Assembly (NCBI RefSeq): GCF_033153115.1 | Contig: NW_026889796.1 | Coordinates: forward strand, 8,494,001 to 8,558,000 | Length of the DNA stretch: 64,000 nucleotides | Origin: Saccostrea echinata | Lineage: Eukaryota | Reading direction: 5' to 3' | Shown: positions 1,878-54,800 of the stretch, one piece after another | How positions within the stretch are numbered: position 1 is the stretch's first letter | How the letters are laid out: the number at the start of each line of letters is the position of its first letter | The notes under the pieces: model-generated | The model's database searches: none | The model's input: the letters and a program-made list of their open reading frames with translations, nothing else | What the model was told of the DNA's origin: nothing | Translations under genes and position numbers: made by a program

Positions 1878-2187
1878 GGATGTATGTTCTGCGGGAAAAT
1901 GAAATACGGATATAGACGCTGCCGAGATGTAATAAAAACACTTTCAATTAATTAAAATTCTGAGAATTGGCACGCAGATAAAAGTTGGTAATTTTTATTA
2001 CTTCAGATTATTCTACTGGAAAATTTTAATTTCATTCAGGAAAAAGGAATATCTAAATTCTCATATTGTTACTTCACTGACGGAAAGAAATTAAAATCAT
2101 GTCTTTAACATCAAAGTAAATATCACCCTCTGGAGCCTCAAGTTATCTTATGTTTTGAAGTGCTTATCTGAGATTTTTCCTTACAGC

Positions 2188-3420
2188 ATGTCTATGTTGG
2201 AATTTTCCTCTCTGCTGCATTGTAGCAGAGATACAGAGGAGAATACACTAGGAATACCTATCTACCGACAGAGGGCGTCGTGGGGCCAACAAGCAGACAT
2301 GGAATTGGCGGCCAGTCCTGGAATGACGGACCTTTTGACCCAAAGAACTATCCTTGAGCATTTGTTTCTTAAACGCCCGATAGAAGGCGAATTTTGGTAC
2401 GTCATTGTGGCCGAATGGATAGAGCAACTGAAACGATACATAGGTTTACAGACGACTCGGAAGTTTTATCACCAAAGGACGAACCCTGGTCCGATAATCA
2501 CTCGTCGGGACTATGCACATACTGTTGACGTAGTACACGAAGATGCATGGCGTATGATGGTACAATGGTACGGACTAACAGATGGCCATAAGCCGATCAA
2601 ACTTGTTGTGTATAACTACAGACGCGGTCCTGAGATCGAACACAATTTGAATTCTTTCAAGGTGATGCTTAGTATTTCATCTGTCGAAGACTTTCACCAT
2701 GTCAAGTTCAGCAAAATGGAGAAAGTCGGCCATATTGAGTACAAAGTTCGGCATTTGTACTGTATACCAAAAGAAAAACATTCGAGAATATGGGCTAAGA
2801 CAGACACAGACAGCGAATGGAGACTTCTTCTGAATCGAGATAAAACTGTAGGAAAATATCTCGATATCGATTCCGACTTCATTCGTCCAATTGTTGCTCT
2901 TGAAATTTGTGACGAAGAAGGGAAATGGGTAAACGCTCCCCAAGACGCTTGCGCAGTAGAAATTCAAGAGTGCCCAGTAGGACCTTTGTATGAACACGAC
3001 ATCTTCACGGACCTCACGAGCAGCTGGGAGGTAGATATTCACGACCAGATCGACCATATTGGAAAGAGCTTGGTGGATAACCTCCATGTCAATTTTAATG
3101 CTTTCGTGCAGAAAGCGCGGGAATTTGTTGACGAACGAGACTACCATCTGCGTCAACGAGAACGTGATATCTATCGCAGAGAGTCATTTATTGAGGATCT
3201 CACTGAAAAATTGGAAAATAAAGAAAAGGTACTAGACGCTCAGTTGGAATCATGTGAAAGGCAATTGAACGAATGTGATAAACGCAGAAAAGATATTGAA
3301 GTGGAATGCAAGAAGCAAAGGGAAGATTTGGATCGCCTCGAAGAACGGAGGAGAATGGACTTTAATGCACAGAAAGAATCATTTGAAAATGAACGAGACA
3401 AGTTTCACTCAGAATTGCAG
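2188..3420 (+). CDS. Gene 1 coding exon 1: DUSP + ubiquitin-like domains (USP4/11/15-type) followed by a coiled coil
   Basis: ATG at 2188 after acceptor ttacag; donor CAG|GTAAAT at 3420/3421 (phase 0). GEFWYVIVAEWIEQLKRYIG...NPGPI...AWRMMVQWYG...PI matches DUSP (about 2330-2610). KFSKMEKVGHIEYKVRHLYCIP...RIW...ALEICDEEGKW matches the adjacent UBL of USP15/4/11 (about 2650-2935). E/K/R/Q-rich heptad region at about 3110-3420. Confidence 0.85.
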
Positions 3421-3467
3421 GTAAATTATTCAGCATATAGTCTCAAATCCTTTGAGTTGCGTATTCT

Positions 3468-3632
3468 TAAACAATAAAATACTTACTTTGGTTGTTAGTA
3501 TTGGAATTAATGTTGCAGCTGTTGCAGGAAAAAGCACACGATCCGCGTCAGCGGGTTCTGATTTTTTTTTTCTGCAATAGCTGCAACGTTAATTCCCGTA
3601 CTAACAAAGAAAGAAAGACATTTTATTGTTTA
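3468..3632. repeat. Long imperfect palindrome (palindromic MITE-like element) in the gene 1 intron
   Basis: TAAACAATAAAAT...TTGTTAGTATTGGAATTAATGTTGCAGCTGTTGCAGGAAAA pairs with TTTTCTGCAATAGCTGCAACGTTAATTCCCGTACTAACAA...ATTTTATTGTTTA. Confidence 0.75.
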
Positions 3633-3766
3633 TATTTATATTTGTATAAATAATCATTATTAAGTATTTAACATAATATATTATTGGGATACAGGCATGG
3701 AATATATTTTTCTTATATGTAATAACATATTTTCACCTTTCTTTTAACATTTCTTTTTTATCCAAG

Positions 3767-4156
3767 CGTATGTCAGACATGTACAAAATCCAGGATAGTC
3801 GGATCAAACTGGACATCGGAGGTCAGCTGTTTACGACGTCACTAACGACACTTAACCGTGATCCAGACTCCATGTTGGCGGCCATGTTTAGTGGCCGCCA
3901 TGAACTGAAAAAAGAAGATGGTAACGGAAGCTACTTCATAGACAGGGACGGCACACACTTTCGATACATTCTTAATTTTCTAAGAGACGGTGAGGTCAAA
4001 GATGGAACTATTCCTGAAAATCCCAACTTGTGGAGAGAATTGTTGACGGAGGCGGAATACTACCAGATAGGAGGACTTGTGCACTATCTACAATCGCTCC
4101 TTCATAGTCATCAACAACGACACGATTCGCCTTCTAGTGACACAACTTTTGTTTAA
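3767..4156 (+). CDS. Gene 1 coding exon 2: KCTD-type BTB/POZ (T1-like) domain; spliced product about 540 aa
   Basis: A polypyrimidine tract and ccaag acceptor at 3766 join in frame to exon 1. IKLDIGGQLFTTSLTTL...SMLAAMFSG...YFIDRDGTHFRYILNFLRDG...EAEYYQI is the classic KCTD BTB signature. Stop TAA ends at 4156; AATAAA at 4303. Confidence 0.9.
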   Translation, partial: RMSDMYKIQDSRIKLDIGGQLFTTSLTTLNRDPDSMLAAMFSGRHELKKEDGNGSYFIDRDGTHFRYILNFLRDGEVKDGTIPENPNLWRELLTEAEYYQIGGLVHYLQSLLHSHQQRHDSPSSDTTFV

Positions 4157-4619
4157 ACTGGCCTTATAACAGACTTTCGTGTTCAGTACCAAAATTGTAC
4201 GTTTATCAAACGGCCAGATGTTTAAATTTAATATATAGTGCATACCGACTTTCGATGTTATTCGCTCGGTCTGCGAATAAGGTCTTTTTGATTTGTGCCT
4301 AAAATAAAACACAAATTTTGAGCCATAATTATATAATTATCTAATATTTCTAAGCTGTGCAATAATTATGTCAATTACGGTGACTTGAAGTTCTTTGTTT
4401 TTTGATACCATGCTTATTTTCGAAAGCCAGGCTGATGGAAATTAATAGATATCTTGCTAAAACTCCTTACTATATTCTTTAAAATATTACCAAAGTGTAA
4501 AAAAAAAAAAAAAAAAAAAAGAACAACAAATATATACTGGCAATCATTTAAAACGCACACACAACTGTTATAATGATATTTATCATTTTATTTGTGGAAG
4601 TAATAAGATATACCAATAA

Positions 4620-4784: not shown

Positions 4785-7700
4785 TGATTGTCGATGAGTG
4801 TAGTCGTTCACTTATGAGGAGTTATCAAAAAGTTCGCGAATTGATGCGATTAAAATTATATCTAGTCTGTGCTCACAAAACTTAAACGGAACATAAAACA
4901 ACAAAAGTTTAAGAAATACTAAATTTTAGCTTTATACGTCGATAATCTGCAAAGTTGTTATAAAATAAAAAAGACATTATATGATCACCGGCTCTGTCGC
5001 CGTTTAGTTTCATGACGTCCAACAACCTCATTGTGTCTCAAAGTCCGTCCCCTCTACCTCATACACTTATCTTGATGAGATTGTCTGGAGTTTAGTAAGG
5101 ACTTAAGCCCGTCTTGTTTATATGACTTTACAATGTCATGAATTAACAGCTGCTTTCAATACATATTACATGTATATTGTAAATGTATCTACACATAAGG
5201 AAAGATCCTCACTTGATTATGCTAGCATATTTTACTTGTCGGAGTTCAATATCTACCACACATGATCAACGTCACTTTTTGAAGTGACTGACTTTTCAAA
5301 CCCTGACTACAAATCGACATTACATGTAACTGTCCATCTCATCTATCCGACACTCTTTCGGCATTTTAAAACAAGTACTCTGGATGCATTTTATTTCTAT
5401 GTAGCCCGTTTAAACATTTCCTAGGTCTATACCAGTTTTTCCAGGAGCGAAACTTTATAGAATGTTGGAAAAAGAAACCCCTTCCCCCTTCTGACGCCAT
5501 GCTTAAGCTCTTATTTTTTTGGACACTCCAGATAAAATTTACGATAAAGTTTCATAGAACTTATAGAATGAGGTAAAAATTGCAAAATTTACGGAGCAAT
5601 GTGTCATAGTCTCTAAATCATCTTGACCTATGATTTTAACAAGAGGAATATAAAATAAATTATTTAAGAAATTGAAATTGTTTTTTTTAATTATGAACTT
5701 GCACGCTCTTCACTTAAAATTTGACATTTCTTACATAATTAACGTACCGATTGACAGATATTGCCTGAATACTATCGTAACAGTGACGGACAAAACGAAT
5801 GTCTGTTCATGCTACGTGATTCAAACGGGTGCATTCAGATTTATACGTTCAGTGAATTAAACCAAAAAGTATTTTTATTTAAGAATATTAATGTACCATA
5901 AGGCAGAATTTGTCTTTATAACTTAAACAAAACAATTCTGTAGTTGTTTTCTTGCAGTTTTTAAAAAGAATCTGTCAGGGTTACGTGCATCCGTACATGT
6001 TACGATATACTAGGTTTGATCTATATAAAATAATTTATTTTTTAAAATTTCATTAGTATTTTCATAAATAATAATATCTTGTGTATTATAATTTCCAAGA
6101 ATAAAAGATAAGTTTTGAATGATAAATTTTATTGGCTCGTTTTGAACAGGTATTGCTCAAGAAATATCGTAACATGACAGACATGGTGGAAATTTTGTAT
6201 GTTACAAAGCGTATAGCAGAGATTTATTTTTTAAAAATTCAAATTTTATATCTATAAGGAATCAAAATTTGAATAATGTCCATTTCTAACGGCAACGCTA
6301 TCTTTTTGGTAAAATAATGAATGTTTATGGTTGTTTGGCTGGCTAAGTAGAGGAGTCTGTCAGTGTTACGATCATCAGTTTGTGCATCAAAAGTAGCTTA
6401 AAAATCTCTTTTTTTTCTACGTAAGAGTGAAAAAAATTGCATTGTTTAAGGAATTGTTTAATTTAATTTTTTACAGATTATTTGTATTGCTAAGCATCAG
6501 AAATGTAATTTAATCATGTCACGTTTTATTATACGTCTGTCATGTTACGTTATATATCTGTCATGTGTTACGTGACACACATTTCAAACATTATTAAAAT
6601 ATTTTTTTTTTGACTTAATTATCCATTCAAACATGTTTTTGTCCTATTTAGAGTCAAAATTTCAAATACACATAAAGAAATCTAAGAAAAAACGTGTCTA
6701 TAGAATTCTTTATTTGTCCTCCCAGATGTACTCAAGAGCGAATTTAGAGCCCATACCACATGCCTGAATTGACGGGATTTTTGCATAACAAATGCTCATA
6801 TCAACAGAATTTTCTCAGTTACATGTTTACACTCATGCAGGTAGGAAAAAACCCGTCATATTCGAGGTTGCGCCGCCTTGACATACCATTGCTTGCAAAA
6901 ACATGAACAATTTTTCAAAAAATAAAAATTATGATTTATATATGGTTTTTTCTATAAATAGAAAAGATGATGCTAACTAAATGTATAAAAATTCATTGAT
7001 GTACCTAAAGCGGTTTTAATTTTATAACACTAATCCATGAACTTTTTAATAACCTCTCGTACATGTAATATAACTCCGCCCACATTCGAGTCATACCAGC
7101 CCCTCCCCTTCCCAATAGTGAACCAATAATTCGACTTACCCTATTTTAAACACGTTATGTTCACGTAAGGTTCAATTTTTAACAAATTAGCTTAGCAAGG
7201 TATAAAAGATAACCTTGATGATAATTTATATATTATCGTATGTCCAATGCAGGTATGTGAATGAATATGCAAAAGATTGAATAATTTACTTTCGAACCAT
7301 ATAATCTCTAATTTATATGAAATTAACAGCTGTTCTATAAAAAAAAGACATTTTACATAATGCTAAAATGGGTTAATTCCTATATCTCTCTCCAAATATA
7401 TACTGGGATTAGAAACTGGATTACAGAGTGTGCAAAGTGTAAAACGGGATTATGTTTTGTTAATTGAATGAAATGGAAATTAATCTTTTGGACAAATATA
7501 AGCAAATAATTCTCAAAAGGATCTTTTGCACTTATAAAATATTTTTTTGGTTTTAAAAGGCTTTGAGTTCACCGAATCCATGCAATAACTTTTTTTCAAA
7601 TACACGAGAGAAATCCGTGATTTTTAAACGTCTCTTAATAATTTATGCGCAACACTTGCACACATACTTTTCCTGCTCCCTCACACCCCACCCTCAATAT

Positions 7701-10779: not shown

Positions 10780-11660
10780 TCAAAGTCCATTAAAATAATA
10801 CAAATCGGGAGCAGAGCAAACATGGACCTCCAAAAACACCAAAGATGGGGTCAGGTGCCATGGAGGAGTTAGCATCCCCTGTCGACCGGTCACACCCGCT
10901 GTGTGCTCCATTTCATGATCGGTAAACAACGGAAAAATCCGTCGACAGTGTGTAAATAATGGACTGCTAATTGGCATGAAAAACATCAATCAGCATATGA
11001 CTTAATTAATGATAGATTTTTTGCTGACAAGGTTTTTGTATAGATATAGATAGAACTCACGAAATGATGACTTTAAACGAGACTGTTGATATTCTTGTTT
11101 CATCAACTTGTTTGTCAATAATTTACCTCGTTTTAGAAATTGTTCATACGTAGATCATGTTCTTGCGTATCGAATCAACTGAGAGATATACACCCCATAT
11201 GCAGGTGATGAAGGTATATTGCTGCATAAGTAAGGGAAGTTGACGATTGAAAAGTTAAATTCATCAAGTTTATTATAAAGCTTTGTTGTTAGATTACTAT
11301 TTACCTCTTTTTCTAGTAAAATATCCAAATATGAAACAGATGTGTCAGACTCTGTTTTATCTTTTATTTCAAACTCACTGGGATATATCGTGTCGATATA
11401 TGAATGGAAATAACTATTGTTAATTGATAAATATACGCCGTCGATATATCTTACTGTCGAGTTGAAGTCCACAGCAAAAGATTTCTTTTTCTTAAGTATA
11501 AGATTTTGACTAAATTCTGCTTCATATGAATACAAAAATAGGTCTGCTAACAACGGGGCGCAATTGGTACCCAACAGATTATTGAAAGACATGGTCTCCA
11601 AAATCAACATACATATTGTCAATCAGAAACTCAAGCATTTTTTTAATATCAACTTCATAA
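10780..11660 (-). mobile_element. 5'-truncated, degenerate Penelope-like retroelement (RT C-terminal part and 3' end)
   Basis: ORF 11155-11622(-) reads GTNCAPLLADLFLYSYE...RYID(G)V..INN...SYLDILL...KLYNKLDEFNFSIVNFPYLCSNIP..PAYGVYISQLIRYAR, an RT palm/thumb with the catalytic YIDD decayed. The 3' region GGGTGTGACCGGTCGACAGGGGATGCT.ACTCCTCCATGGCACCTGA recurs at about 49663 and 59875. Confidence 0.75.
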
Positions 11661-51800: not shown

Positions 51801-54800
51801 TAAAGTTCAACACTGAATTATATACATGTGTATATGTACGTGTACATATATTGGCGTATTCACTGGTTATGAAGATGTTGGTTAAATCATGAATTAGCTA
51901 TACATTATGTCCAGGTCGTATATTATATTTGTAAATGGTTTCTTAGCAGTATTCATGAATTAGCTCAAATATGAAGCCCGCTTTTTTAAGTACACATACA
52001 TGTACAGTAGTTAACAATCTTTTCAAAAATATTCCTTTCTACAACAATAATAACGCCCCGAGGTTAAGGTAGGGGATCAAAGCTTTAGATGCATATGAAT
52101 AAAAGAAATTTTAAAATCTTCTCAAGAACAGTAGGAAGATATATTAATTTGTAATGATGGCAATATAGTACTAAAAATGTAGACCTATTCTCTAGCCACC
52201 ATTTTATCAACATAAATCATTGAACCATTGATGAGTCAAGTGAACATCGTGGCACTTTTTTCCGAAGAATAACTACCACTCATTGCATACAAATGGCAAT
52301 TCTAAAATTGTGACTATAACAATTTAGTGAAGACTATGACGCATATTTAATTTAATTCTCCGGAATTTAGTTTGCAGTAAAAATATAAATTGTACTTTCA
52401 ATAGGTACATATGTATACATCGCTCCCTTCAAAACTTCTCTATTTATTCTTCCAGCATACCGTATTCAAGATAAGCATGGCAAATTTTTTTCTGTAAATA
52501 CAGGTTATGCCGAATGGAGCACCTGGGGCCCGTGGACTTCATGCAATAAGCAGTGCGGGGGTGGCGTTCAGAGGAGGAAGAGGGCGTGTTCTACTACCTC
52601 CTTGCCGTGTTCTGGTGATCAGGAAGACTCAAAGAAATGTAACACACAACCGTGTTCTAATGTGGTTCTTCCTGCAACCATTCCCCCAAATTCGTCAAGT
52701 AGGTCCATTCGTTTTGTTGAGGTTCAGTTTTTGAATTCCAAATTTTCACGAGGAAAATCGTAAATAGAAAACGTAGGCTTCTTTATATTCTCTATTATTG
52801 ATTTTTAAGCAAAACCATTTACAAAATGTGTTGATTTGTAGAGTTTGGCTGTTACATATGCAGTCACGAAAAATCAAGCGAAGCATGTAATATGAAGGGA
52901 ATTCAGGCTTGTCCAAATGGAAAACAGGTAAGAGAGGAACACTCTCTGCTCAATTATTGTAAAAAAAGAAAAAGCTTATATAAAGTATGATTTTCGTCGT
53001 TTTCGTGGTATGAAAAGACCCATGAATTCATTCATGTACTAAATGTTAAAATTCGAAGACGAGTACTGTTCCTATCCTCAACCACAAATTGAAAATCATC
53101 ATAAATCAACAGTTTACACTAGCGCCACGACAACTTAAACCCATACAATTAAGTGATTTTACAGTTGGTGTTAACACGTCAATTAACATGAATATTTTTG
53201 TACAAGACACGCATTAAAAATAATCTTTATCTTGTAGATTTGTGGTACAAGAGTTGACAGAAAGACAAAGAATGTAATGAAAGCATGCACGGCCGTCTGC
53301 AAACCTGGCTGCAACAAGAACGCATGCACGTTCTGTTGTTCATCTACTGGATGTAATAAAGGTGTGTACTAATGATCAAAACCGTTTCTTGTTCATAAAC
53401 TGGCTGTAATTATGATACCGGTATGTATTAAAGATGAACACCTTCAGTTGTTCATTTACTGGCTTTAATAAAGATATGTATTGATGAACAACGCCTTTTG
53501 TTGTTCATCTACTGGTTGTAAAAAACGGTATGAATTAACAGGCCCGTAGGAAGCAATTTCACTTTGAGGGGGCACAACAATACATTTTCAGTTGGGGGGC
53601 ACTATCAATGATCAAAATTTCTTGACAAGCAAAAAAAAAGGTCATCAGACGTTATTATTGAGCGGGCACAAGCATAAAGTAGCTATGTTTTCTATAGTAT
53701 TCTATATATCGGCAAAATTATTAGGAGGGGGCACCCCTGTGCCCCCGGTTCCTACGGCCATGATTAATGATCAACACCTTTTGTTGCTTACCTACTGGCT
53801 GTAACAGAGGTATGTATTAATGATCTACATCTTCTCTTGTTCATCTGATAGTTGTAATAAAGGTATGTTTCTATTAATAACACCTTCCGTCATTCTCCCA
53901 CTGGCTGTAATAAAGGTGCTTGTAATCAAAACCTTTTTGGTGTTTATTTTCTGGCTGCAACTTGGATGCCTGTATGTTGTATTTTTATGGTGATCCACAC
54001 CGTGAAATGTTCTTTAATTTGCTATAATCGAACTTGTAAACTAATGACCACAATTTTTTCATCTTACTGGTTATAATCGAAGTTCCTGAACTGGTTGTAA
54101 TCGAGGTACGTACCCAATGAGCCACAATTTCCGATGTTTATGAACTGATTGTAATCGAGGTACGCAACTTATAATCCACCATTTCCGAATGTTTATCTAT
54201 TGCCTGTAATAGAGATAGAGATATCATCAAAAGATCCGTACTTAATGAGGTCATCTAGTAGTTGTTATAAAGGGCATATATCCACGGTGCAGAAAAAAAT
54301 TTGGTATACCTTCAAATAATTCTAATGACAGACGTTTCAAAAAATACATTTCAAAGAATACACACCATTTGATGTATTTACTCTTTATTAATAATGTTTC
54401 AAAATTGTTAATGTTTTGTAGAATTTGGTAAATATGGACAGTGGTCGTCGTGGAAAGAAAAGAAAACCAAAGGTGGCAAAATATTGGAGCGCAAACGAGA
54501 CTGCACGACGCAAGAATGCTCTGGTGACACCACCGAGACCAAACCCTGCACACCCGCCCTGTGTTCTGGTAGGTGTTCATAATGCTATAGGGAGAGTTTA
54601 TTTAGTTTTGTGATCGATTGTATTTGGCTTTTAAACAGAAAAAGTAAAGAATAATTAATAGTTCAATTGCATATTCTACCTTGTATGTATCATCTTTTTT
54701 AAACAATTTTACCATATGTCAAGAAAGACATTTTACACTTTCTAAAACATTTTTATGTTTCATGAACTTGATATTAATTGTATATGGTATCACAACACGA

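Follow-up and report, generated by a model that had tools for sequence, protein, structure and literature searches.

Can the recognition module of a deubiquitinase be carried by a protein that bears an adaptor domain of ubiquitin ligases, and what would such a protein do? The question is raised by a locus in the window analyzed here, a 64,000-nucleotide stretch of Saccostrea echinata DNA. A preliminary description, made from the letters alone, had proposed that this locus encodes a protein in which a DUSP-UBL module of the USP4/11/15 type is fused with a coiled coil and a BTB domain of the KCTD type, that the product might act as a Cullin-3 (CUL3) adaptor, and that it could reverse the sign of regulation on USP15-type partners.

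The gene lies on the + strand. Its first coding exon (2188..3420, 411 codons) encodes a variable N terminus, the DUSP domain with its finger, the UBL domain, a linker, and most of a long helix, and the second coding exon (3767..4156) encodes the helix end, the BTB domain, a short variable tail, and the stop. The two are separated by a phase-0 GT-AG intron of 346 nt (3421..3766), and the signals are the ATG at 2188, the donor GT at 3421, the acceptor AG at 3765-3766, and the stop at 4154-4156. Splicing of 2188-3420 to 3767-4156 yields a frame of 540 amino acids with zero internal stops. The anticipated junction 3420/3767 was borne out, since exactly 346 nt with GT..AG ends were absent from contigs in 4/4 runs, one of which is recorded as RNA while three are presumed to be RNA. 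A 3′ untranslated stretch (4157..4377) with an AATAAA at 4303 was taken from a spliced contig of run X2, the end of which need not be the true RNA end. The assignment of 2188-3420 as exon 1 stands for the coding sequence, but this is only the first coding exon: an optional GT..AG intron in the 5′ untranslated region (1984..2186) lies upstream, skipped in one X2 contig whose shorter flank has 30 letters, and contigs of runs X1 and X5 continue through it unspliced. A protein translated from a 1,988-nt contig (P0001) is 97.4% identical to the window protein across 540 amino acids without a gap. When coding differences were listed for the best-supported rows only (18 listed, 297 further rows), 17 of the 18 were synonymous, versus 20% expected. 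The gene is real, spliced, and conserved.

Several other features were seen in the window. A multi-exon gene in a tandem array occupies about 19000-46000 (+), with a further exon near 52400; the repeated unit of ∼3.05 kb is present in about seven copies of 97 to 99% identity between 24.5 and 44.5 kb and shows a strong GC skew, and its exons, read by eye, encode what we take to be thrombospondin-1-like, chitin-binding-like, and cysteine-rich three-finger-like modules. An open frame at 11155-11622 (−) resembles, by eye, a retroelement reverse transcriptase fragment. Dispersed repeats lie at about 1100-1400 and 4900-5500, where many unrelated contigs map with loose ends.

The order of parts in the 540-residue protein is DUSP, UBL, a predicted helix of ∼150 residues, and a C-terminal KCTD-type BTB. 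The DUSP domain (residues ∼47-139; 2326..2604) is matched by Pfam at residues 67-142 (E 4e-7) and the UBL domain (residues ∼156-249; 2653..2934) by Ubiquitin_3 at residues 166-247 (E 1.8e-8), both over the curated cutoffs. Between them lies the DUSP-UBL β-hairpin finger (2599..2646). The exon 1 part of the predicted helix or coiled coil covers residues 272-411 (3001..3420), and the KCTD/T1-type BTB spans residues ∼423-522 (3800..4099), with BTB_2 (PF02214) detected in exon 2 at E 4.6e-20, also above the cutoff. As had been noted, a deubiquitinase domain is missing: Pfam found no match to a USP catalytic domain (Cys/His boxes, UCH/peptidase family) in either exon, and the frame stops after the BTB. 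Pfam and the alignment likewise revealed no KCTD C-terminal domain behind the BTB, where the remainder is an 18-residue variable tail.

Structure comparisons gave the same assignments. The best solved relatives of the head are the DUSP-UBL structures of USP15, USP4, and USP11 (USP15, E 2.8e-15), at an identity to USP15 of only about 24%, and the closest solved relative of the BTB is KCTD7 (8i79, E 5.8e-22). An AlphaFold2 model of residues 44-335 built from 76 sequences reached a pLDDT of 92.1 and a pTM of 0.77, and its top Foldseek matches were again the USP15/USP4/USP11 DUSP-UBL structures (best E 5.7e-18), which agrees with the proposed USP15-family arrangement of exon 1. The full-length run with 25 sequences did not resolve the DUSP domain (pLDDT 61.9, pTM 0.31), and only the helix and the BTB were used from it. 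In that model a single unbroken helix is predicted for residues 272-420 (285-433 of P0001), with a hydrophobic period of about 3.6 to 3.7 and well-conserved initial ∼60 residues, consistent with the coiled coil that had been placed between UBL and BTB.

We then ask how widely this arrangement occurs. Both ends, DUSP-UBL and BTB, were present in 32 of 55 homologues, and 23 of 55 were without the BTB. Carriers include the bivalves Crassostrea, Mizuhopecten, Sinanodonta, Ruditapes, Mya, and Mactra; the gastropods Haliotis, Patella, Littorina, Pomacea, Aplysia, Lymnaea, and Biomphalaria; Octopus; the chiton Liolophura; and the annelid Owenia. The window protein is 85% identical to a Crassostrea virginica protein, and the ESM Atlas cluster of orthologues holds 50 members. 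A sequence labeled as coming from a gregarine data set (P0200) groups with the annelid sequence in the DUSP-UBL tree and is therefore probably host derived. Among the best 150 of 14,045 matches of a deep search, 23 more distant DUSP-UBL-BTB proteins were found, some of them partial; these are mollusc paralogues (Sinanodonta, Mercenaria, Haliotis asinina), a set referred to here as group B, and the hemichordate protein XP_006813504 of Saccoglossus kowalevskii (P0067), which aligns with P0001 end to end at 30% identity over 503 columns with 8% gaps. The suggested check of taxonomic distribution thus returned full-length orthologues in molluscs and an annelid, along with a hemichordate protein that is collinear with them. 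Among the named matches listed, none carries the name of a vertebrate, arthropod, or nematode. No longer fused form (969 to 2765 amino acids) was present among 103 candidates, which is weak evidence. Searching with a profile of divergent members gave six proteins, of which five were known homologues and one was BTB only, and no additional taxon name; 13 pattern matches in viral contigs contained zero relatives. Four distant DUSP-UBL-coil-BTB members (P0073, P0127, P0178, and P0099) were found as whole proteins on contigs of 0.15 to 2.3 Mb and may be fully intronless copies. As judged from these sequences, the fusion is ancient and conserved, with paralogues, and is not a chimera of one genome.

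Gene structure bears on how the fusion arose. The window encodes its DUSP-UBL in one exon, whereas in two USP4/15-type loci (L003 and L004) the matched region is interrupted by three GT-AG introns. Likewise, 26 of 30 BTB-less homologues are unbroken across DUSP-UBL. Eleven of the 30 terminate at the residue of the window's intron, followed by Val, and those that do not end there stop at what appear to be further introns in the coil; we infer that the intron position is common to homologues from other bivalves and from gastropod-like, chiton, and annelid-like sources. The intronless DUSP-UBL region, which had been read as a hint of retroposition or exon shuffling, thus contrasts with the intron-split USP4/15 genes. 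This fits retro-copying, in which a USP4/15-type mRNA would have supplied its 5′ part as a copy placed ahead of a coiled-coil-BTB cassette that already existed, and intron loss may also account for it.

Such copying probably took place once, before the protostome-deuterostome split. The DUSP-UBL tree (37 rows) unites group B and the mollusc paralogues with the mollusc-annelid clade (support 100/98); Saccoglossus falls outside the other fusions and nearer the USP outgroup, and the window clade sits on a long branch from USP4/15. A constraint placing all fusions together was not rejected (p-AU 0.153). The BTB tree (148 rows, 124 columns) grouped the mollusc-annelid orthologues (SH-aLRT 92) and has too little resolution for dating the fusion. 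A coil profile placed Saccoglossus at 1/55 and above 500/500 shuffles, yet barely over an unrelated coil-BTB protein (53.6 versus 48.8 bits). A single origin that would include the hemichordate form is a possibility favored by collinearity and, to a weak degree, by the coil profile. One Gly of the UBL was considered as a shared derived mark of all fusions and rejected, as the BTB-less L001 has the same Gly.

What, then, might the head bind? In USP4 and USP15, SART3 is bound through the β-hairpin finger (GLFVKH/QGMFVKHC; F127, V128, and H130) together with W54, and USP11, whose finger is three residues shorter, does not bind SART3, according to the available text of PMC4914101. The window finger is three residues shorter than that of USP4/15, as in USP11, it lacks the SART3-binding F-V pair, and a Thr occupies the W54 position; these features recur in all mollusc-annelid orthologues displayed. 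Since the finger and W54 contacts are lost, the proposal that the protein captures SART3 fails for the window protein, and sign reversal on the same clients is unsupported there. The head of the hemichordate protein resembles that of USP15 (E 1e-58) and includes a full-length finger and the Phe equivalent, and it is only there that the SART3-finger features are partly present. Another ligand of DUSP-UBL is the coiled coil of the E3 BRAP, and the USP11 module binds a longer BRAP fragment (PMC3522295, in part); as USP11 has the short finger, clients that do not depend on the finger are possible.

A further activity of the module concerns the enzyme itself: free USP4 DUSP-UBL added in trans raises catalytic-domain activity about ninefold, and R40E lowers USP4 activity (PMC4243247, available text). 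With equivalents placed by spacing on the USP15 alignment, R40 corresponds to Glu, F51 to Leu, and Y136 to Asn in the window protein, and E134 is kept, its equivalent being invariant (25/25). Across 34 orthologues, positions conserved in at least 90% number 53/100 in the BTB, the highest of any region, 42/93 in the DUSP, and 8/16 in the finger. Conservation of DUSP and finger within the clade suggests that the head is under selection with a surface of its own, and, as it is strong despite the changed USP contacts, it points to a new, fixed partner. The remodelled mollusc-annelid head thus likely binds a partner other than SART3.

At the other end of the protein, the identification of a C-terminal KCTD-type BTB was confirmed, and its closest matches are the CUL3 binders KCTD7, KCTD10, and KCTD13. 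KCTD7 contacts CUL3 through D74, M76, M80, R84, H85, D98, and Y131 (PMC10856315), and identical counterparts are present in the window BTB for 7/7 of these. The first five lie in the α2-β3 loop, DSMLAAMFSGRH (3866..3901), as putative CUL3 contacts. In the 34 full-length orthologues, the equivalents of M76, M80, R84, and D98 are each retained in 34/34 and that of H85 in 33/34; Y occupies the Y131 position in 26 and F in the other 8, and the D74 position varies (D in 13, N in 15, other residues in 6). Contacts are looser in the 23 more distant proteins, with M76 in 10/23 and H85 in 13/23. In KCTD1 and KCTD15, both CUL3 nonbinders (PMC10856315), the α2-β3 loop differs from the KCTD7/window type, and the D98 motif is common to all. 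The suggested reading as a CUL3 adaptor is thus supported by the retained contacts and the differing KCTD1/15 loop. Likeness of the BTB is not proof of CUL3 binding, since KCTD14, which groups with KCTD7, is a nonbinder (PMC10856315), the D98 motif occurs in nonbinders, and the residues of the loop have a part in the BTB fold as well.

Tails of the coil-BTB type also occur behind other N termini, namely Kelch repeats (P0153) and low-complexity sequence in land snails (P0114 and its relatives), suggesting that the tail is a reusable cassette. In P0114, P0239 to P0241, P0115, and P0130, a Gln/Asn/Arg-rich N terminus and a C-x2-C...H-L-C motif precede a coiled coil and a C-terminal BTB of similar kind, and three of these land-snail proteins bear consecutive locus numbers in Bradybaena.

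Compared with known systems, the protein shares with USP4, USP15, and USP11 (PDB 4a3p, 3t9l, 3jyu, and 4mem) the order DUSP-finger-UBL, a predicted common fold, and the matching G-x-W point after the UBL at which the module ends; it differs in that it is without the catalytic domain, has a finger as short as in USP11 and has lost the SART3 contacts, and encodes DUSP-UBL in one exon. With KCTD7 (8i79, its complex with CUL3), KCTD10, and KCTD13, it shares the T1/KCTD-type BTB and the CUL3-contact loop, whereas its BTB is C terminal, after the helix of ∼150 residues, the KCTD C-terminal domain is absent, and the putative substrate module is the N-terminal DUSP-UBL. KCTD3, SHKBP1, KCTD9, and Plasmodium Kelch13 also join a KCTD-type BTB to an unrelated binding domain, and none of them has DUSP-UBL. 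In these four proteins, the binding domain comes after the BTB. The Kelch13 BTB matches that of the window (E 6.9e-13), and in Kelch13 a coiled coil lies ahead of it. KCTD3, SHKBP1, and KCTD9 bind CUL3, and the KCTD family is defined by a BTB in the N-terminal region (PMC10856315, in part). By these comparisons, the protein is neither a USP nor a canonical KCTD, and its mode of action would resemble that of BTB adaptors, with a substrate module that is so far unreported.

We therefore propose, with a probability of roughly 0.5, that the protein forms oligomers and serves CUL3 as a substrate adaptor, its recycled DUSP-UBL binding a new partner. Most KCTDs are pentamers. A ring of BTBs would dock CUL3-RBX1; the helix, about 20 nm long if each of 150 residues adds 1.5 Å, would be a stalk that bundles the heads; and these would expose a captured protein to ubiquitination. 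The BTB closest to those of CUL3 binders, the retained CUL3-contact residues, the conservation of BTB, DUSP, and finger, the end-to-end alignment of the Saccoglossus protein, and the DUSP-UBL at the substrate end of a RING-B-box-coil scaffold (L002, described below) argue for this proposal, and a binding role of the head is plausible since DUSP-UBL is an established binding module for SART3 (PMC4914101) and for the BRAP coiled coil (PMC3522295). Against it, the C-terminal position of the BTB and the length of the stalk could keep a bound substrate remote from the E2, the CUL3 contacts are looser in the more distant proteins, and KCTD14 is a nonbinder despite its grouping with KCTD7.

Other explanations share parts of this evidence. 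If the adaptor took the clients of USP4/15 (SART3 or BRAP-like coiled coils), or USP15 itself, it would oppose the deubiquitinase; the USP15-like hemichordate head with its full-length finger and Phe, the BRAP binding by short-fingered USP11, and the single USP4/15 gene reported for invertebrates (PMC4624187, available text) speak for such strict sign reversal, but the absence of the F-V pair and the W54 equivalent in the window clade, its long branch, and the ∼24% identity to USP15 make it unlikely. We hold it similarly doubtful that the protein is a CUL3-independent scaffold or decoy, in which BTB and coil multimerize the heads to cluster or sequester a partner without ubiquitination, as in KCTD1/15 and KCTD8/12/16. 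The long stalk would suit that role, the ligase function is itself putative, and for nine human KCTDs CUL3 binding is lacking or was unreported in the available text of PMC10856315; yet KCTD1/15 have replaced the α2-β3 loop, which is kept here from oysters to an annelid.

Regulation of a USP15-type enzyme in trans appears still less probable. Here the head would dock on the catalytic domain and activate it or bring it to CUL3 complexes, with shielding from self-ubiquitination, in line with the ninefold effect of the free USP4 module and the invariant E134 equivalent; however, the Glu at the R40 position is the very change that lowers USP4 activity, and Y136 and F51 are replaced as well. As for an assembly or gene-model artefact, in which a USP15 fragment was joined to a neighboring KCTD gene, the 23 homologues without a BTB might suggest it, but most short homologues are open frames running into an intron, 32 homologues have both ends, 17 of the 18 listed differences are synonymous, and the junction in contigs of all four runs refutes it, leaving it a negligible chance. 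The CUL3 adaptor with a new partner is thus the reading we prefer.

DUSP-UBL was also found on another ligase scaffold. At L002 1183-2862 (+), one open frame of 559 amino acids in one contig encodes a RING, a B-box, a coil-like stretch, a DUSP (E 1.9e-16), and a UBL (E 2.9e-18); as predicted from this frame, it shows a TRIM-type E3 scaffold with a USP15-type DUSP-UBL where the substrate domain normally sits. Stand-alone DUSP-UBL derivatives were observed as well: L001 (4-840, +) is a frame of 278 residues in which a basic tail, and no catalytic domain, follows DUSP-UBL, and L011 is similar and partly intron-split. One could go further and regard the fusions as ancient bilaterian E3 adaptors with a head stolen from USP15, through which a CUL3 ligase would ubiquitinate what the deubiquitinase protects, with the hemichordate form still directed to the spliceosome factor SART3 and the mollusc-annelid form to a new client. 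In this view, DUSP-UBL would have been moved to ligase scaffolds several times independently (to a BTB here, to a TRIM-type RING in L002). We consider this extension speculative and rather improbable; if true, the theft of modules from deubiquitinases by E3s would be a recurrent route to antagonists.

No description of the DUSP-UBL-coil-BTB architecture was found in the literature searched, most subscription journals and supplements lying outside its scope. For motor neuron L7, one study names the Aplysia orthologue only as an uncharacterized gene with slight down-regulation (PMC11488329, in part), and the terms DUSP and BTB are absent from the available text of a review of deubiquitinase evolution (PMC5381560). 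Orthologues are already in databases under automatic names, either DUSP domain-containing protein or BTB POZ domain-containing KCTD7 (for example, Octopus P0025 and Owenia P0053). The architecture is conserved and apparently undescribed.

To our knowledge, DUSP-UBL has been studied only as a targeting arm of ubiquitin-removing enzymes. In molluscs and annelids, it is kept under purifying selection on what is apparently a ubiquitin-adding adaptor, and this architecture would be a natural counterpart of engineered fusions of a target module with an E3. The series is graded, from the USP15-like head of Saccoglossus through the remodelled mollusc head to the more divergent paralogues, and it makes a change of partner from eraser to writer testable, with orthologues in tractable animals such as Aplysia, Lymnaea, Biomphalaria, and oysters.
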